From Clostridia bacterium (GTDB lineage Bacteria; Bacillota; Clostridia; UBA1212; DUPL01), in contig JBMNIW010000001.1 in assembly GCA_050951325.1 (NCBI GenBank), positions 129,229 to 193,228 of the forward strand: a DNA stretch of 64,000 nucleotides. The letters are read 5' to 3'. Every line of letters begins with the position of its first letter. Position 1 is the first letter of the stretch. Made by a program: the position numbers and the translations under genes. Below the pieces are notes generated by a model. The model saw only the letters and a list, made by a program, of their open reading frames with translations. It ran no database searches and was not told where the DNA came from. This document shows, in pieces, positions 23,495 to 32,313 of this stretch.

Positions 23495-25759
23495 ATGATA
23501 AGAATAATAATTAGACTTACCAGCCTGTTTCTTTTGTCCGCTTGTCTTGCTTCCTTCATTGGGTGCGGGAAGATAACAAGCCCGATAGATAAAAGGAGTA
23601 TTGCATTAATTGACAACAATGTAAAGTATGATCCAGAGGTGATACCAATAGATTGGAGCAAGTTTGATATTAAACCATTGACAGAAGAGCTGGCGGATGG
23701 AACAATATATCTAATCAGAAATGGAACCAAGTACATAGTTAATGACTGGTGGAACAGAGTTTGGAGATTCAGCCTGCAGGATTCAAAAGAATACCTTGCA
23801 ATGACCGGCAGAAACGAACATGACATAAGGCCTTTGACGCATATGGCGCTTACCTTGTCTTCCAGCATTGCCTTAGGAATATATGATGAATCTGTGACAG
23901 GAGTTTCAAAGGAAAATGCCAAAAACATGGCGATGAAACTTACAAAATCCGTTGCAAAAGCTCACTACTCAAATACAGAGGGCGGTTGGGGCAATGCCTG
24001 GCAGAGTGCTTTATGGGCATTCGATGTTGCCCTGGCAGGTTGGCTGTTTTGGGAGGAATTTAGCGAAAAGGATCGTGAATATATTCAAAACTGCGTAGTA
24101 ACGGAAGCAAACAGATTTATTGAATATACAGTGCCCTACTACAGGGATAAAAGTGGGAAAATAAGATTTCCTGGCGACTCAAAGGCTGAAGAAAACGCAT
24201 GGAATTCAAATATTTTGTCAATTGCCTGCGCCATGATGCCAAACCATGAAAACTACAACGCCTGGATGTACAAGAATGTGGAACTTATGCTTTCAGCCTT
24301 CGCAAGGCCAAGTGACGCAGACTCATCAAAAACCGTGAGCGGTTTTGTTCTTAAGTACCTGCTGGAAGGTTCAAATGTAAATGAAGATGGAACTGTAATC
24401 AACCACAACATAGTGCATCCGGATTACCAGGCCACGGTAGCTCTCAATCTTTTGAACGGGATTAGCTTTGCGCTGGCAAATACAAAAATACCTGAAGCTG
24501 TTGTCTTCAATGGAGATGTGATCTATGAGACCTTTGTAAACCTTGACCTTAAAGATATAAACAATAGCATGGCAAGTCAGTACATATACAAAAGGAAGAA
24601 TGACGGAAGCGCATCCCATGAAATAAACTATCCGAATGGAACAGACTGGGGTACAGACAGGCAGATATGTTTCTTCCTGGTGGATGTCTTTGCCGATGCA
24701 CTGAATCTTGACAAAAACTGTAAGATCAAGGCCAAAGACTTTGCACTGGCAAGACTTCCTGTTATGAAGGCAATGCAGGACAGAAATGACAACGGCCAAT
24801 ACTACACCGCCTCAGACAGCGACAAGTACAAGAGTCGTGAGGAATGGGTCATGTGGCATGCTACCTTGTCCTACATGGCATTGTGGGTAAAAGAAAACAA
24901 TCTGTTTGTTTTTGACAAGGAACTGCCCTTAAAACCCGCACCGCTTAATGAAGTTAAGCTTGAGATACCGCATGTCCTGCAATCTGGCACCACAAGCAAG
25001 GCAACTTATTCACTGAATCCAGGATTGGTTATTCTTCCTGATGATTTGAAAATAGCATACTCATCCAGCGACAAGGATATAGTATCCATAACGAATACTG
25101 GTACTGTATATGTAAAAAAGGAAGGAAAGGTCACAATTTCAATAACTGTCACATACAAGGACATAGTTGTTTCAGACAGCGTCGAAATAGAGGTGGTCAA
25201 AGACAAGAAACCCATTTACGACTTTGAGGACCTGCCGCTTGGCAACACCCTTCCTTTGGACTTTAGGTGGAACAATGTGGGCAATGCGGAAGTTGTTCAG
25301 GAAGATAACGGAAACAAAGCACTAAGACTTTCAGGTGCTGGATACAACTACATTTTCATAGGTGATGATTTTGAAGAAGACTTTACTGTAACTTTTAGAT
25401 TTAAGATGGAATCCCACCAGCAAAAAGGAGGGGCGCATCTTCTTTTCCGGGAAGATGACCTTTTGTTTACTGGACGTAATGGATACCAGTTCTGCATAGG
25501 CGACACAATGAATGGAGAATACGGACTTGAGCTTAGAAAACGCGATACCAGTCTTTCCGACAACAAGTATGCCGCCTGCGAGCTTGACTATGAGTGGCAC
25601 GACTTTGAGATAAGCATGGTTGGAAACAAGGTAACATTAAAAATGGATGGAGAGGAAGCCATGACCCATACTCTGACAGGATTTGATAAAGGCTGCATTG
25701 CCATTGCATCTTATCTGGATACCGTACTGTTTGACGATATATTGATAACTCTGCATTAA
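23495..25759 (+). CDS. Lipoprotein: unassigned Trp-rich ~440-aa domain, Big_2 domain and C-terminal DUF1080/LamG-like domain.
   Basis: Lipobox LLSAC. Core motifs NDWWNRVW, HYSNTEGGWGNAWQSALWAFDVALAGWLFW, NHNIVHPDYQAT, YPNGTDWGTDRQICFF, EEWVMWHATLSYMALW. Big_2-like segment LNPGLVILPDDLKIAYSSSDKDIVSI. Confidence 0.7.
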   Translation: MIRIIIRLTSLFLLSACLASFIGCGKITSPIDKRSIALIDNNVKYDPEVIPIDWSKFDIKPLTEELADGTIYLIRNGTKYIVNDWWNRVWRFSLQDSKEYLAMTGRNEHDIRPLTHMALTLSSSIALGIYDESVTGVSKENAKNMAMKLTKSVAKAHYSNTEGGWGNAWQSALWAFDVALAGWLFWEEFSEKDREYIQNCVVTEANRFIEYTVPYYRDKSGKIRFPGDSKAEENAWNSNILSIACAMMPNHENYNAWMYKNVELMLSAFARPSDADSSKTVSGFVLKYLLEGSNVNEDGTVINHNIVHPDYQATVALNLLNGISFALANTKIPEAVVFNGDVIYETFVNLDLKDINNSMASQYIYKRKNDGSASHEINYPNGTDWGTDRQICFFLVDVFADALNLDKNCKIKAKDFALARLPVMKAMQDRNDNGQYYTASDSDKYKSREEWVMWHATLSYMALWVKENNLFVFDKELPLKPAPLNEVKLEIPHVLQSGTTSKATYSLNPGLVILPDDLKIAYSSSDKDIVSITNTGTVYVKKEGKVTISITVTYKDIVVSDSVEIEVVKDKKPIYDFEDLPLGNTLPLDFRWNNVGNAEVVQEDNGNKALRLSGAGYNYIFIGDDFEEDFTVTFRFKMESHQQKGGAHLLFREDDLLFTGRNGYQFCIGDTMNGEYGLELRKRDTSLSDNKYAACELDYEWHDFEISMVGNKVTLKMDGEEAMTHTLTGFDKGCIAIASYLDTVLFDDILITLH

Positions 25760-26824: not shown

Positions 26825-28192
26825 ATGAACAAAAATTCATGTCTGTTATCATTAAAAAATTCAAATGTAGTTCCTATTGACTGGAGCAACTTGAACACCA
26901 AACCTTTAACCGGCGAGATGACAGAAGGAATAATAAATATTATTAACAATGGAAATAAATTTATTGTGAATGACTGGTGGAACAAGGTCTGGAATTTTAA
27001 TGACGATAACCATAAAGAATACCTGACAATGAAAGGTAACAAAGAACATAGCATAAGACCACTAACCCATATGTCACTGGCATTATCCGCAAGCATTGCA
27101 CTAAACATATATGATGAAAATACAACCGGAGTATCAGTAAAAGATGCTAAAGATATGGCTGTAAAGCTGATAAAATCCGTCGCAAAAGCCCATTACTCAA
27201 ACACTCCTGAAGGTTGGGGAAATGCATGGCAAAGTGCGTATTGGGCAGCAGATGTAGCTCTTGCTAGTTGGTTTTTTTGGGATAATTTTAGCAAAGAAGA
27301 TCAAAAATACATTCAAAACTGCATAGTAACCGAAGCCAATAGATTTATTGATTACATTGTCCCCTATTATATGGACAGAAAAGGAAATATACTGTTTCCA
27401 GGCGACTCAAAAGCGGAAGAAAACGCCTGGAATTCCAACATACTTTCTGCAGCTTGCGCCATGATGCCCAATCACGAAAACTATAACTTATGGATGTATA
27501 AGAACATGGAGCTTATACTTTCGGCCTTTGCAAGACCAAGCGATACGTTAAGGGATATCGAAATAAACGGCTTTAGGCTTAATGAATTTCTTAAAGGTTC
27601 CAACATCAATGAAGATGGCACCGTGGTCAACCACAACATCATTCACCCGGATTACCAGGCAACCATGGCCGTAAAACTTCTAAATGGTGTCTACTTTGCC
27701 TTCGGAAAGCAGAAAGTACCGCAAGCAGTCGTTTTCAACGGAGATGTTATATACGAAAGCTTTGTCAACCTTGATTTGAAAGACCTGAACAAGGACATGG
27801 CAGGACAGTATATTTACAAAAGAAAGCATGACGGGAGCGCTTCCCACGAAATAAATTACCCAAATGGTACCGACTGGGGAACCGACAGACAAATATGTTT
27901 CTTCCTTATGGATGTGTATGCAGATATGCTGAAGCTGGATAAAAACTTGCCGGTAAAAGCAAAAGACTTTGCTCTTGCAAGACTGCCCGTGATGAAAGCC
28001 ATGCAAAGCAGAACGGAAAATGGACAGTACTACCTGTCTACAGATAGCGACAGATACAGAAGCCGGGAGGAATGGGTTATGTGGCATGCAATTCACTCCT
28101 ACATGGCTTTATGGGTAGGAGAAAACGGCATGTATAACATTACCAACGAAAGTCCTTTCAAACCAGATATGCCATCACAGGATACACCTTAG
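26825..28192 (+). CDS. Cytoplasmic (signal-less) paralogue of the Trp-rich domain family; domain only.
   Basis: Same motifs (NDWWNKVW, HYSNTPEGWGNAWQSAYWAADVALASWFFW, NHNIIHPDYQAT). Starts MNKNSCLLSL after GAGGTGA. No lipobox or hydrophobic N-terminus. Confidence 0.65.
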   Translation: MNKNSCLLSLKNSNVVPIDWSNLNTKPLTGEMTEGIINIINNGNKFIVNDWWNKVWNFNDDNHKEYLTMKGNKEHSIRPLTHMSLALSASIALNIYDENTTGVSVKDAKDMAVKLIKSVAKAHYSNTPEGWGNAWQSAYWAADVALASWFFWDNFSKEDQKYIQNCIVTEANRFIDYIVPYYMDRKGNILFPGDSKAEENAWNSNILSAACAMMPNHENYNLWMYKNMELILSAFARPSDTLRDIEINGFRLNEFLKGSNINEDGTVVNHNIIHPDYQATMAVKLLNGVYFAFGKQKVPQAVVFNGDVIYESFVNLDLKDLNKDMAGQYIYKRKHDGSASHEINYPNGTDWGTDRQICFFLMDVYADMLKLDKNLPVKAKDFALARLPVMKAMQSRTENGQYYLSTDSDRYRSREEWVMWHAIHSYMALWVGENGMYNITNESPFKPDMPSQDTP

Positions 28193-28238
28193 CTTAACTT
28201 AACTTCACCTCCTGTGTATATTATACCTACAGTTGGTT

Positions 28239-28272
28239 AAAGCGATGGGAAAATTTCTCCCATCGCTTTAAC
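28239..28272. terminator. Bidirectional terminator hairpin.
   Basis: AAAGCGAUGGGA-7 nt-UCCCAUCGCUUU (12-bp stem). Confidence 0.55.
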
Positions 28273-28296
28273 CTGCAGCTCTACACGATATTTTAA

Positions 28297-28350
28297 TAAT
28301 TTGTAGTTATTTGTTGAACACTTCAATCTCACCAAGCTCCTGAAACTCTG
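28297..28350 (-). other. Detached native 3' end (last ~17 codons plus stop) of the GH-like gene 30442..32301, separated from it by the IS200/IS605 insertion.
   Basis: Minus frame encodes ...AGFSHAEFQELGEIEVFNK*. This aligns with the C-terminus of paralogue 6907..9168 (TTGYLFQLAEFEVYKSD). Confidence 0.5.
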
Positions 28351-28351
28351 C

Positions 28352-28600
28352 GTGGCTAAAGCCAGCAGGTTCTAACGTACTTTCCAACTTCTGCACTAAC
28401 CCGAAAGTATAGTGCCACTAATTGGTTTCCGTTAGACTTTTACCACCAATTGTTCCTACGAACAAATTAACGGTAGTTTAGGCTCGTTTCAAAACCCATT
28501 ATATAAACTCATATTACATTCTTTAATGCTTGTCTTACTTCACTATTATTTAATCTTTCAATTTCTTTATCATGTAGTATTTTAAACCTCTCAAAATCTC
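28352..28600 (-). ncRNA. Putative TnpB guide RNA (omegaRNA / reRNA) from the 3' end of tnpB plus the right end.
   Basis: Position only: in characterised IS200/IS605 elements the omegaRNA overlaps the tnpB 3' end and the right end. The 150-nt region 28355-28508 is non-coding. Confidence 0.3.
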
Positions 28601-29966
28601 GTTTACATTCTTCTTGATTAATATTGCATAAATCATCGTTAACGTGCTGTATTAAAAATGCACTATATAAATCCCTTTGTATTTTAATGCCGTTTAAATC
28701 ATTCCAACGTTGACTTAATTTTTTCTTATTATATCTGCAATTCAAATGATTATATTGGCTTGCTTTTACTTCTTTAGTATTAACTTTTATAAGTTTTTCA
28801 CCAAAATATTTTAATTTATTGTCTAGTATGGTTAATAATTTTGCTGGTGCTTTATTGGCTAAACTTTTACCAAACCGTTTCTTACGTTTAAATTTACCTT
28901 TATCGTTCTTTTCAGTTTTCTTGTTTCGTTTCTGCAATCCTTTAAAATTCATTTCTTCAACTTTTATCTTATTACCGAGAGATAATATATAATTACTTAA
29001 TAATTGGTGTTGATATTCTCTTACGTCTGCTTGTTTTCTATATAATTCTCTTAGTTTGTTCTGTGCTTTAATATATCTATTAGATTTGACCCATTTAAGT
29101 TTACCTTTTTTTATTGTACCATCTTCATTAAAATTATCAGGATTATTAGCACGTCTGCTTCTATCCATATACCTCAAAATTCTACGCTTTTCTTTTTCAA
29201 TATTATTTACTCTATCGGCTAATTCTAATAATTTTACATCTACATTTGATACTATTGCTATTGTTTGAGTACCAATATCTAACCCCACTGTACCATTTCC
29301 TATATGTCTTTTAACCTCACCATCTTTATTTATCTTCATAGGAGGTACACCTTTGAATACTATTTGAAGATAATATTTGTATTTACCTTTTATAAATCTA
29401 CGTTTAATTCTACAATAGCATATTTCATCTTTTAGTGCTTGGTACTCATAAGGATTATTATAATCTATTTTTACAGATATTTTTAACCCATTCCATATAA
29501 GAAAACCATCTTTAAATCTTATGCCTGTTTTATTGCTTTTACCTTCAAGAGAATCTAATTCTCCATATTTTTTGAAGTGTACTATTTCACCATCTCCAAA
29601 CAATAAATCTTCAAATGCACTCCATACTCTTGTTGCTATTTTTTGTGCTGTGAAACTATCTATATTTTCCGAGAAATGATGTTGCATTTCTTGTATATCT
29701 TCATGTAGTGAATATTCATTGAGCCTATATTGCTTATACATTTCATTTAATTGCTTATATAATAGTTTCTTCTCTTTTTCATTTGCATTATTAATTTGCT
29801 CCTTTAACTGCCTATATTTTTTAGTTTCAATCATAGATTTATAACGTTTATATGCTTTAGATAATACAGCATTGTATAATTGTCTGCTAATTTCAAAACG
29901 CTTATTTAAAATAGTTTCTTGATACTTTTCAGTTATTAATGGAAATGTTACACAATATCGACTCAT
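28509..29966 (-). CDS. tnpB: TnpB (IS605 OrfB-type RuvC-like, RNA-guided nuclease family), 485 aa.
   Basis: N-terminal YCVTFPLITEKYQETILNKRFEISRQLYN. RuvC-I VGLDIGTQTIAIVS. RuvC-II IKVEEMNFKGL. RuvC-III QRDLYSAFLI. The zinc-finger region has only three Cys (NCRYN ... CNINQEEC). RBS AAAGGTGGTGAATATTT. Confidence 0.85.
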   Translation of the reverse strand: MSRYCVTFPLITEKYQETILNKRFEISRQLYNAVLSKAYKRYKSMIETKKYRQLKEQINNANEKEKKLLYKQLNEMYKQYRLNEYSLHEDIQEMQHHFSENIDSFTAQKIATRVWSAFEDLLFGDGEIVHFKKYGELDSLEGKSNKTGIRFKDGFLIWNGLKISVKIDYNNPYEYQALKDEICYCRIKRRFIKGKYKYYLQIVFKGVPPMKINKDGEVKRHIGNGTVGLDIGTQTIAIVSNVDVKLLELADRVNNIEKEKRRILRYMDRSRRANNPDNFNEDGTIKKGKLKWVKSNRYIKAQNKLRELYRKQADVREYQHQLLSNYILSLGNKIKVEEMNFKGLQKRNKKTEKNDKGKFKRKKRFGKSLANKAPAKLLTILDNKLKYFGEKLIKVNTKEVKASQYNHLNCRYNKKKLSQRWNDLNGIKIQRDLYSAFLIQHVNDDLCNINQEECKRDFERFKILHDKEIERLNNSEVRQALKNVI

Positions 29967-29983
29967 AAATATTCACCACCTTT

Positions 29984-30382
29984 CTATACGTTTTTTTGAT
30001 TTTCTATATATTTTTGTATTGTTTCTTCTGAAATATATCCTATAGTGCAACAAAAATAACTTCGTGTCCAAAGAGAAGGTATTCTACTTCTTAACTCTGG
30101 ATATTTATTTCTTAATATCCTACTACTTGTTCCTTTAAAATATCTTATTAATTCATGCAGTGGTTGTCGTGGGTCAAAACTTATAAACATATGAACATGG
30201 TCGGGCATTATTTCTAATGCTTTTATTTCAACATTCTTTTCTTTTGCAATATCATAAAATATTTGTCTTAAATCTTTTTCAATATTACCAACCAATACTT
30301 TCCTTCTATATTTAGGACAAAACACTATATGATATTGGTTAAGATATACAATACCTTCTTTGTGTATATATTTATCATTCAT
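29984..30382 (-). CDS. tnpA: IS200-type Y1 (HUH) transposase TnpA.
   Basis: 132 aa. HUH motif MPDHVHMFISF. Catalytic Tyr region SYFCCTIGY. RBS TAGGTGGTGAATATCTA. Confidence 0.9.
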   Translation of the reverse strand: MNDKYIHKEGIVYLNQYHIVFCPKYRRKVLVGNIEKDLRQIFYDIAKEKNVEIKALEIMPDHVHMFISFDPRQPLHELIRYFKGTSSRILRNKYPELRSRIPSLWTRSYFCCTIGYISEETIQKYIENQKNV

Positions 30383-30441
30383 TAGATATTCACCACCTAT
30401 CTAATTATAATATAGCATAATATTAGATGGGTGTCAAGTAT

Positions 30442-32301
30442 CTAATAAGCCTTCATCCCAACGACTAAAGTCGTGGGCTTTCGGCTAAGTTTTCTGTAAA
30501 CCCAGCCATACTTGTTTCGTATGAGTTTTGGAACAACAAACTTTATATACCTGGCTTTTGTTTTTTCAATATTAATCTTTAACTCCTTTTCAACAGGCAG
30601 TGCAACCTGCTCATTGGCTATTTCTACCCAGTTATCGTTGCCATCTGACACCAATATCTTAAACCTCTGTGGAAACACGGTACCATCAGCAGGATGTAAT
30701 ACAATCTCGTTAAACTCCTTTTGGGTTCTAAAATCAAACAAAACAAACTGCTCCGTACTTTCCTTTGCTATACCCATATACCCTTTATTATCAAGAGTAG
30801 CATTCTTTTGCCCATCCACAAGATGAACGAGATAGTACCCCTCCTCTCCATAAGAGCTGGATGCGGACATAACTGCATTTTTTAACATGTTAGTCTTGCT
30901 ATCATCCTGCTCTGCTACCTCATCCAAAGTACCTATGACATTGACTCCTTCCCTGAAGACAAACAGCGCCGCTCCACCAGGTTCAAGAGTTTTTGTAAGG
31001 ATGCCTTTCCTTTTGTACATACCTTTTTTGTAGTCAGCCTTTATTTCCTTTCCCGTTTCCTTTGATATCTCTTTAATATAATCGATTCCGTCAATCTCAA
31101 ATTTGACAGTCTGGCTGCGGAGAAAGTCCTTGTTCACAATCATCATGTAGTTTCTTTTTGTATCCCGATGTTCCATGAGGGAAATGATTGAGTATGTATC
31201 CCCTATTGGCTGAATGAACAAATCCTTTGGAACCTCCTTGTAAGTCACACCATCCTGTTTCATCCCCGAATGATATATCTCCAAGGCATCCAGCTTTGCC
31301 AGATGAGAACCTATTGCATGAATTTGCTTGTTTACCTTGCATAAAGGCTCATACAAATCTGTAGGATTTCCTTCATAATCCATTATTGCAAGGGATGCAT
31401 TCCCTTCATTTTTGGGCGGTGTAGCCCAGCAGAAAAACTTAAGCTGCTTGAATCCATAAGCCAGTGCCGCCATCATGTTGTATCTTAGCACATCGATATC
31501 CGGTCGTCTGTAATACCCCGGAATACCCAAAGCCTGCACATAAACTGCCGTGTTAATCCCGTAATCCAGCCCCACCTGCCTCATGATTTCATAATCATTA
31601 AACATGTCAGTCTCGTTGTTGCTTTTGGGATCTTCTCCAAAGGTATATACATCAAACGACAAAATATCTCTTTTATCCTGTAAAAGCATGCAGTAATCTC
31701 TAAGCTGCTTTTCCCAGATCTCATACGACGGATAACCAAAATGAGGCATGAAGTTGACATCGCATATTGCATCCGTGTCATATGTTCGCATTAGTCTGAC
31801 AACCCTTGCAAAGGGGTTGGCATTCTTCGGTTCATCGTAGAGATAATATCCGCCAACCCCTGGCAGGTCCTTGTACTCATCTACAATTCCTTTTATTTCT
31901 TCATCCGTTCTGTTCAAAATGCTTTGGATTCTTGTGTCTCTTACCAATATTTTAAGTCCGTACTTGTCTGCCACTTCCGCCGCTTTCTTGTATCTTTCCT
32001 CTGTATGCTCACTTGAAACAAAAGTCTCACTGAAATAGATATGCGTAACCAAATCAATATCAGCATCCTTCATGTATTTCATTTGCTGTTCCATGTGCTC
32101 ATCATCGTACAAAGGCACAAGGTAGGAAGTAATAATTATATTATCAAGATCCATTGCCCTTGGCCTCTCAACACCTTCTCTTTTACGCATAAAATCCTTC
32201 TCATACATTCTACCAATCACTCCATTTGATACAAGCAGTATTGCTGCGATAAGCAATAAAGCTGCAAATACATACAATACTGCTTTTCCAATCGCTCTCA
32301 T
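30442..32301 (-). CDS. GH-like TIM-barrel protein, paralogue of 6907..9168, with an N-terminal signal-anchor. Its 3' end is rewritten by the IS insertion.
   Basis: GGYYLYDEPKNANPFARVVRLM and downstream blocks collinear with 6907..9168. The final ~17 residues (RKLSRKPTTLVVGMKAY*) are read from the IS left end. ATG 32301 used (ORF track TTG 32307). Confidence 0.7.
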   Translation of the reverse strand: MRAIGKAVLYVFAALLLIAAILLVSNGVIGRMYEKDFMRKREGVERPRAMDLDNIIITSYLVPLYDDEHMEQQMKYMKDADIDLVTHIYFSETFVSSEHTEERYKKAAEVADKYGLKILVRDTRIQSILNRTDEEIKGIVDEYKDLPGVGGYYLYDEPKNANPFARVVRLMRTYDTDAICDVNFMPHFGYPSYEIWEKQLRDYCMLLQDKRDILSFDVYTFGEDPKSNNETDMFNDYEIMRQVGLDYGINTAVYVQALGIPGYYRRPDIDVLRYNMMAALAYGFKQLKFFCWATPPKNEGNASLAIMDYEGNPTDLYEPLCKVNKQIHAIGSHLAKLDALEIYHSGMKQDGVTYKEVPKDLFIQPIGDTYSIISLMEHRDTKRNYMMIVNKDFLRSQTVKFEIDGIDYIKEISKETGKEIKADYKKGMYKRKGILTKTLEPGGAALFVFREGVNVIGTLDEVAEQDDSKTNMLKNAVMSASSSYGEEGYYLVHLVDGQKNATLDNKGYMGIAKESTEQFVLFDFRTQKEFNEIVLHPADGTVFPQRFKILVSDGNDNWVEIANEQVALPVEKELKINIEKTKARYIKFVVPKLIRNKYGWVYRKLSRKPTTLVVGMKAY

Positions 32302-32313
32302 CTTCAATCATCC

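Follow-up and report, generated by a model that had tools for sequence, protein, structure and literature searches.

An IS200/IS605-family element with IS608-like organisation and a zinc-finger-less TnpB interrupts a discoidin-domain gene in a Clostridia bacterium

Within the IS200/IS605 family of insertion sequences (IS), the described element closest in organisation to the one studied here is IS608, in which TTAC lies 19 nucleotides (nt) 5' of the left hairpin, AAAG is the guide tetranucleotide and the right cleavage falls 10 nt 3' of the right hairpin (PMC3201880). The closest described TnpB systems are those of ISDra2 and ISFba1, where a structured RNA (omegaRNA) located at the 3' end of the element overlaps the 3' coding region of tnpB and the flanking sequence acts as guide. 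According to a survey of TnpB diversity, the zinc finger has been lost in some large branches of these proteins (Altae-Tran et al. 2023, PMC10691335). We analyzed an element located on the minus strand of a 64,000-nt stretch from a Clostridia bacterium (contig JBMNIW010000001.1, positions 129,229 to 193,228), hereafter the window, whose own positions are used throughout. Window positions 28340-30495 very probably correspond to an intact and recently mobile IS of the IS200/IS605 family, of the IS608 organisational type. The element is inserted in a glycoside hydrolase (GH)-like gene, and its TnpB belongs to a clade without zinc finger.

Limits, ends and target site of the element

The limits of the element were determined by alignment of multiple copies, gathered by a scan of reference genomes and by exact-protein look-ups, and by comparison with empty sites. 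At least eight independent copies and three empty-site contigs agree on these limits. In every copy the left terminus AGAAAACTTAGCCGAAAGCCCACGAC... is found directly 3' of TTAC, at 8 distinct and unrelated left flanks; likewise the right terminus reads ...GCAGAGTTTCAG (...CCTGCTGGCTTTAGCCACGCAGAGTTTCAG) in every copy, and the 11 right flanks beyond are unrelated. Since identical termini stand amid unrelated flanks, the element extends over 28340-30495 (minus strand, 2156 bp), without target duplication. An independent check comes from the Logan unitigs, which, starting from either unique flank, break k-1 = 30 nt inside the repeat; on the left, the break corresponds to 25 nt of the left end plus the shared TTTAC. 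The window contains a single copy, visible as a 2.2-kb block of 28% G+C compared to 40% in the rest of the window. The GC skew, considered for assigning the top strand of the element to the lagging-strand template, changes sign within the window and is confounded by gene orientation. With the 18-mer AAGTATGGCTGGGTTNAC, a metagenome scan gave 60 loci, every one a chance match.

The target TTAC (30496-30499, minus strand) is host DNA, provided by the GTT-TAC codons of the interrupted gene. It is the TnpA target and left cleavage site, and the putative transposon-associated motif (TAM) of TnpB. TTAC is also present 5' of the left end in the diverged relatives L002, L085 and L111. In empty sites, TTAC or TGAC is joined straight to GAGCTT, so that insertion occurred 3' of TTAC without target-site duplication and the empty site is seamless, as in other members of the family. 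A first-pass annotation, made from the window alone, had already recognised a tnpA-tnpB element of the IS200/IS605 family inserted at a TTAC formed by GTT-TAC codons, without target duplication. The Y1_Tnp match of TnpA, the ends, the 8 distinct TTAC sites and the seamless empty sites bear this out. It had also proposed to map the ends with other genomic copies; these agree with each other and place TTAC outside the element, not inside. Of the span it gave, 28297-30495, the left limit is exact; the right end is at 28340, rather than about 28352 or 28366, and the span therefore takes in 43 nt of host DNA.

Two observations concern the other copies. L006 and L014 have the left flank of L008, but the right flank of L008 differs, which corresponds either to recombination between copies or to a chimeric assembly across the repeat. 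L002, whose TnpB is 72% identical, contains between tnpA and tnpB about 1.8 kb of extra DNA (positions 623-2408 of L002) including an open reading frame (ORF) of 451 amino acids (aa); this segment probably represents a second mobile element nested within the first.

The transposase gene tnpA (29984-30382, minus strand) encodes a 132-aa protein of the Y1/HUH type, with the HVH motif at residues 62-64 and the tyrosine at position 125. It matches Pfam Y1_Tnp (E 2.8e-42, over 2-121 of 121 positions) and NCBIfam transpos_IS200 (E 2e-44, 150.8 bits for a cutoff of 55). Upstream of tnpA, the 113-nt left end (30383-30495, minus strand, delimited by the multi-copy alignment) presents, in order after TTAC, an 18-nt linker, AAAG (30478-30481) and a 21-nt subterminal hairpin, CCCACGAC-TTTA-GTCGTTGGG (30457-30477, minus strand), which is retained with changes in L002, L111 and L125. 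On the other side, the right-end hairpin CTGCTGGC-TTTA-GCCACGCAG (28348-28368, minus strand) is preceded by GAAC (28369-28372) and followed by 8 nt, of which the last four are TCAG (28340-28343). The two ends thus bear subterminal palindromes and no terminal inverted repeats. The same end arrangement is found in L002, and compensatory changes maintain the stems of both hairpins in L002 and in viral relatives. The left end also contains a predicted promoter upstream of tnpA (TTGACA-17-TATATT, 30409-30437, minus strand), which is the best match found (11/12) and includes a TG extension (TGnTATATT). tnpA and tnpB are 17 nt apart and each is preceded by the ribosome-binding context AGGTGGTGAA. The two translation-initiation regions, 29966-29986 before tnpB and 30383-30403 before tnpA, are near-identical over 21 nt, TAGA[A/T]AGGTGGTGAATAT[T/C]TA.

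This layout matches that of IS608 and can be called IS608-like. In both, tnpA precedes tnpB in the same orientation, the ends carry subterminal hairpins, the element is inserted 3' of TTAC with no duplication, and AAAG stands at the 5' foot of the left hairpin (PMC3201880); the left cleavage site is about 18-19 nt 5' of this hairpin, and the right one lies a few nt beyond the 3' side of the right hairpin. The differences concern the right cleavage sequence, TCAG here and TCAA in IS608, the TnpA, whose sequence has only a distant relationship to the family model, and the TnpB, which is 485 aa long and zinc-finger-less. The tetranucleotide located 5' of the right hairpin is GAAT in IS608 and GAAC here.

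By analogy with IS608, TnpA would recognise the two subterminal hairpins and move the top strand, excised and inserted in single-stranded form. Its cleavage on the left, directed by the AAAG beside the left hairpin, would fall 3' of TTAC, and that on the right 3' of TCAG. This scheme would account for an insertion located right after GTT-TAC, for the lack of duplication and for an empty site that is seamless and in frame. From the IS608-like organisation and the family membership we infer a "peel and paste" transposition with a circular single-stranded DNA intermediate.

The interrupted gene and its alleles

The host ORF (30442-32307, minus strand, 621 aa) matches Pfam F5_F8_type_C (E 3.4e-11) and, weakly, Glyco_hydro_42 (E 0.0037). 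The body of the gene, with its C-terminal F5/8 type C (discoidin) domain, occupies 30496-32307 (minus strand; the start codon is putative). The ORF reads ...NKYGWVY and continues through the left end of the element with 17 element-derived codons, RKLSRKPTTLVVGMKAY, followed by a stop; this chimeric tail occupies 30442-30495 (minus strand) in the ORF listing. The native 3' end, ELGEIEVFNK and its stop, survives on the other side of the element at 28307-28339 (minus strand). Joining 30496 to 28339 gives ...NKYGWVY-ELGEIEVFNK, in frame, and this junction is contiguous in the three empty-site contigs (L004, L165 and L082), which read ...GWV[D/Y]ELGEIEVFNK before the stop. L004 agrees with the host sequence at 728 of 730 positions and L165 has 4 differences in 6708; in L165 the intact allele is called as a 612-aa protein. 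The rebuilt end aligns without gaps with both discoidin domains of a paralogue encoded at 6907-9168 (E 5e-15 and 2e-9), which end in ...HVVEIGEIEIYN and ...GYLFQLAEFEVY. The seamless empty contigs and this gapless alignment establish that the true tail survives across the element. Through the insertion, the discoidin domain loses its last 10 residues, which include its final beta-strand, and receives in their place 17 residues encoded by the element.

The replacement of the 3' end of a discoidin-domain GH-like gene, with ...NKYGWVY continued by 17 codons, had been described in the first-pass annotation, as had the survival of the native tail beyond tnpB. The survival holds; the tail has 10 codons and not 19. 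The minus strand at 28307-28366 reads AGFSHAEFQELGEIEVFNK followed by a stop, of which the nine residues AGFSHAEFQ, taken earlier as native, are the right-end hairpin translated in the same frame. The alignment of this FQ with an FQ of the paralogue was a coincidence, the correct alignment being that of the rebuilt end. A check of the last strand of the domain had also been suggested; the Pfam F5_F8_type_C alignment stops at 114-115 of 127 positions for the rebuilt and the truncated C-termini alike and does not discriminate between them, and it is the empty sites that settled the tail.

A precise removal that restores the reading frame (GGGTTTAC joined to GAGCTTGG), a sense insertion in a coding sequence and a clostridial host would also fit an IStron, i.e. 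an IS605-type element combined with a group I intron, which splices from the host mRNA so that the gene still yields its normal protein. The 113 nt from the left end to tnpA and the 17 nt between tnpA and tnpB, however, leave no room for an intron core, and a permissive Rfam scan of 27500-31500 (E<=1) found no Intron_gpI. In addition, the gene is disrupted further in some occupied alleles from elsewhere (calls of 231+344 aa and 385+234 aa), which fits its inactivation. An IStron is thus so improbable as to be nearly negligible, and we retain a plain insertion that truncates the gene. The disrupted alleles come from other assemblies (L166, 3744-5577, and L167, 3721-5579, with the GH-like gene called in two pieces); they suggest further decay after insertion and are consistent with a gene that ceases to matter after its interruption.

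Several other copies of the element (L008, L009, L012, which is the window locus, and L007) lie in or next to genes with F5/8 type C or NPCBM carbohydrate-binding domains; they come from the same assemblies, and the host genome is rich in such genes.

The element is polymorphic in natural populations, where it is either present or absent at a given site, and it is currently mobile. The same TnpB, identical in sequence, was found on 84 contigs; the 120 top TnpB matches are all 98-100% identical (at least 120 variants), and at least 6 copies occupy different sites in one assembly. Alleles of the window locus were identified by exact-protein look-ups of the neighbouring genes. Most sampled haplotypes of this locus contain the element. 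They differ by 0.36% at most and are mosaic, with empty alleles nested among occupied ones. One contig (L082, SRR31905293_14832) runs across the empty TTAC junction and breaks off precisely k-1 = 30 nt later, which indicates that occupied and empty alleles coexist in sample SRR31905293; this coexistence implies ongoing excision or a mixture of strains.

In the vicinity of the gene, a hairpin with a 19-bp perfect stem (28235-28273) lies between the GH-like gene and a convergent gene encoding a 455-aa protein (26825-28192, plus strand), and probably acts as a terminator in both directions. This 455-aa protein is paralogous to the N-terminal part (approximately 450 residues) of a 754-aa protein encoded two genes away (23495-25759, plus strand). 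The DNA of the pair is about 75% identical in part, and no Pfam family was found in the shared region.

A TnpB without zinc finger and its guide RNA

tnpB (28509-29966, minus strand) encodes a 485-aa homologue of RNA-guided nucleases, in which the RuvC residues noticed in the first-pass annotation are D230, E337 and D432. The protein matches NCBIfam guided_TnpB (E 3e-22) and PHROG phrog_506 (E 2e-53). Its AlphaFold2 model has a mean predicted local distance difference test score (pLDDT) of 92.4, and of about 90 in the zinc-finger segment. The top Foldseek matches of this model are the TnpB of ISFba1 (8iaz, 3e-13) and of ISDra2 (8exa, 1e-12), together with 8h1j, followed by Cas12f and Fanzor2. 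A phmmer search of TnpB against PDB sequences gave nothing relevant, whereas a profile search did give matches. The likeness to ISDra2 and ISFba1 TnpB concerns the overall fold (Foldseek 1e-12 to 3e-13, target-normalised template modelling score 0.72-0.75), the RuvC D-E-D triad, the structured RNA at the 3' end with the flank as guide, and a TAM expected to be the transposase target. The differences are a sequence identity of 14-16%, about 80-100 extra residues and the lack of a C4 zinc finger in the present protein. The best sequence-profile match among solved structures is RdCas12n (type V-N, PDB 9J09; E 2.5e-10), from RuvC-II to RuvC-III. RdCas12n is CRISPR- and not transposon-associated, and it has CxxC...CxxC where the clade has SQYNHxT...W...G.

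TnpB contains three cysteines near its C-terminus and no CxxC...CxxC motif, which had led to the earlier description of a degenerate zinc finger. The cysteine count was right, but the finger is absent throughout the clade rather than degenerate in this copy. An exhaustive family search identified 2793 clusters at 50% identity with E<=1e-3, 846 of them with E<=1e-30, and IMG/VR contigs contain 269 relatives. Among 40 representatives, the zinc-finger segment has no cysteine in 29 cases and never more than two in all 40. Instead, other residues of the segment are conserved: H407 (37/40), Y405, Y412, K414, R420 and W421. In the profile alignment, the clade shows ASQYNHxT...RW...G...QRD opposite the CxxC...CxxC...DRD of 9J09. 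D230, E337 and D432 are conserved in 36-37 of the 40 representatives. The clade-wide cysteine-free segment, the confident model and the conserved residues indicate that the loss of the finger is a lineage trait and not a defect of the window copy. At least 34 of the 81 searched loci (80 kept, plus L002) contain a tnpA homologue, and these sequence comparisons describe a clade that is large, phage-rich, Y1-associated and divergent from curated TnpB models. In this clade a module free of cysteines has taken the place of the C4 zinc finger, and the RuvC D-E-D triad is retained.

The loss of the finger in large TnpB branches is already published (PMC10691335), and a C4 finger is thus not strictly defining for TnpB. 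In the same survey, the RIIIr-4 branch is likewise zinc-finger-less, but its RuvC-III aspartate is replaced by histidine; here the aspartate is kept, in QRDLYSAF, and we therefore do not assign the present clade to RIIIr-4 as it is described there (PMC10691335).

The right end of the element corresponds to the scaffold of an omegaRNA (28340-28497, minus strand, 158 nt), delimited by nhmmer, RNAalifold and covariation, and comprising six helices plus the right-end hairpin. With nhmmer, the 169 nt from the tnpB stop to the right end are recognisable as conserved in 48 loci, the TnpBs of which share only 50-67% identity; the demonstrably conserved scaffold begins 11 nt past the stop. RNAalifold on a 37-sequence alignment gave six helices with 38 pairs; 97.6% of the cells are paired, and 30 pairs show double compensatory changes. 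In controls with the partners slid by 1-3 columns, 33-45% are paired. The covariation score is 0.48, compared to at most 0.10 with slid partners, and none of 500 shuffles was as good. The minimum free energy z-score of the scaffold is -3.5. The right-end hairpin covaries by eye, and lies outside the pair scoring due to alignment gaps. Invariant U-G pairs would be A-C on the opposite strand, and the RNA is therefore read in the tnpB sense. In the first-pass annotation the omegaRNA was indeed derived from the right end, and a search for its fold was suggested in 28352-28600. A fold was found, ending at the transposon boundary, with its conserved part at 28340-28497. It differs from the RNAs of ISDra2 and ISFba1 in that the conserved scaffold lies wholly 3' of the stop, whereas theirs overlaps the 3' coding region of tnpB.

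Homology stops sharply at (T/A)TCAG in at least 37 relatives, and the sequences beyond are unrelated. From these alignments, TCAG appears as the boundary between scaffold and guide, as expected for an omegaRNA. Immediately 3' of it, the flank GAGCTTGGTGAGATTGAAGT (28320-28339, minus strand) would encode the guide, whose length of 16-20 nt is assumed from characterised TnpBs; in empty alleles this sequence is located directly 3' of TTAC or TGAC. Some relatives deviate from the common scaffold (L140, L148 and L129 in the omegaRNA region; L114, L098, L109 and others): some have an expansion of 12-31 nt in the central stem-loop, others have a right-end hairpin about 9 nt shorter, and L097, L109 and L113 end in TCGC instead of TCAG.

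By analogy with characterised systems, the omegaRNA would be expressed and processed, its TAM would be TTAC, as suggested by the transposase target, and TnpB would be a nuclease carrying out RNA-guided, TAM-dependent cleavage. Read-through from the scaffold into the flank would supply the guide (GAGCTTGGTGAG...), and the ribonucleoprotein would cut the TTAC-flanked empty site left by excision, favouring re-copying of the element, as for ISDra2 and the Geobacillus elements.

Several observations weigh against an intact element with an active TnpB. The score of TnpB with NCBIfam guided_TnpB is 79.3 bits for a cutoff of 100, no match to Pfam OrfB_IS605 or OrfB_Zn_ribbon was found, and HTH_OrfB_IS605 scores 18.8 for a threshold of 21. 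The C4 zinc finger expected between RuvC-II and RuvC-III, which to our knowledge is present in every solved TnpB, was not found. For these three reasons nuclease activity is not guaranteed. The literature searched yielded no experimentally characterised member of the clade. Concerning the RNA, the permissive Rfam scan of 27500-31500 revealed no similarity to any Rfam family or to RAGATH-18, the only match being a spurious one to the MIR3444 microRNA on the intergenic terminator hairpin at 28235-28273, and the omegaRNA may extend 5' into the tnpB ORF. Finally, the TGAC found in empty alleles is not predicted by the simple model.

The missing CxxC...CxxC, the missing Pfam OrfB_IS605 and Zn_ribbon matches and the sub-threshold NCBIfam score would also be explained if tnpB were decaying or inactive, the finger having been lost by erosion of the window copy and the element surviving on TnpA alone. 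We consider this very unlikely: the segment is cysteine-poor across all 40 representatives of the 2793-cluster family, with conserved replacement residues, the catalytic residues are kept, a full-length ORF with an identical product is present on 84 contigs, AlphaFold2 gave a model of high confidence throughout, and the partner RNA is under strong structural selection. A divergent clade, a protein larger than typical TnpBs at 485 aa and an insertion present in most haplotypes of the locus could alternatively point to a domesticated, non-cutting RNA-guided regulator similar to TldR, or to a locus that is a fixed and immobile relic. This is extremely unlikely given the intact D-E-D triad, the intact tnpA and both transposon ends, the many identical copies with different sites and guides, and the presence/absence polymorphism seen even within one sample. 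An intact, recently mobile element with a TnpB of zinc-finger-less lineage remains the reading that we adopt.

TGAC in empty alleles and significance of the locus

The distribution of target sequences at the window locus was compared between occupied and empty alleles. The occupied left junction is TTAC in 12 of 12 contigs. Both contigs that fully cross the empty site (L004 and L165, which differ in both sample and haplotype) have TGAC, which changes tyrosine to aspartate; the third empty allele, L082, has TTAC. The variant base is window position 30498 (the minus-strand T of TTAC), i.e. position 288 of L004 and 5524 of L165. Between L165 and the window, four host differences were found in 6.7 kb, and since the other three are 3.6-4.1 kb away, the target base is the sole difference in about 5.8 kb. 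The probability that a sole difference falls in the target is about 4 in 5800 if it is unrelated to the element, for an observation made post hoc.

If the behaviour of related systems applies, TGAC would be expected to serve neither TnpA as a target nor TnpB as a TAM. The TGAC allele could then reflect a selection imposed by the element, as a natural immunity or escape allele obtained through one base change in the shared TnpA target and TnpB TAM; it would allow the locus to persist without the element in a population in which nearly all other copies carry it. We hold this explanation as tentative and rather unlikely. The residue of the paralogue aligned with the variant is valine or phenylalanine, which, on this alignment, weakly favours tyrosine (T) as the older state. 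Two points argue against a simple escape from TnpB: once the element is lost from this site, the cell no longer produces the matching guide, and excision would not be expected from a TGAC allele that is occupied. A paralogous donor that could have provided TGAC by gene conversion was looked for, and no matching sequence was found among the loci examined. At a second locus (the L007 site), TTTAC is intact in 4 of 4 empty contigs; as this locus is mostly unoccupied, it shows normal target sites and is not a test of the escape idea. If escape were true, these alleles would be field evidence that targeting by TnpB and TnpA shapes host alleles. The locus in any case offers a natural series of three alleles, TTAC with the element, empty TTAC and empty TGAC, usable for studying whether mutations of the TAM or target protect empty sites in nature; public read sets for it include SRR31905293, ERR6184332 and ERR6189733.

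Taken as a whole, the element is an ordinary, well-preserved member of the IS200/IS605 family, and the core of the first-pass reading stands, with a corrected boundary and a revised view of the zinc finger. The locus can be annotated cleanly as a carbohydrate-binding domain truncated by an IS200/IS605 element, with its exact ends, target, promoter and guide RNA, for an element that is very abundant in clostridia and phages. For a large clade of zinc-finger-less TnpBs, it provides a delimited pair consisting of a protein and a 158-nt RNA, supported by covariation and with a sharp guide boundary. This delimited pair allows a direct test of whether RNA-guided cleavage can do without the zinc finger.

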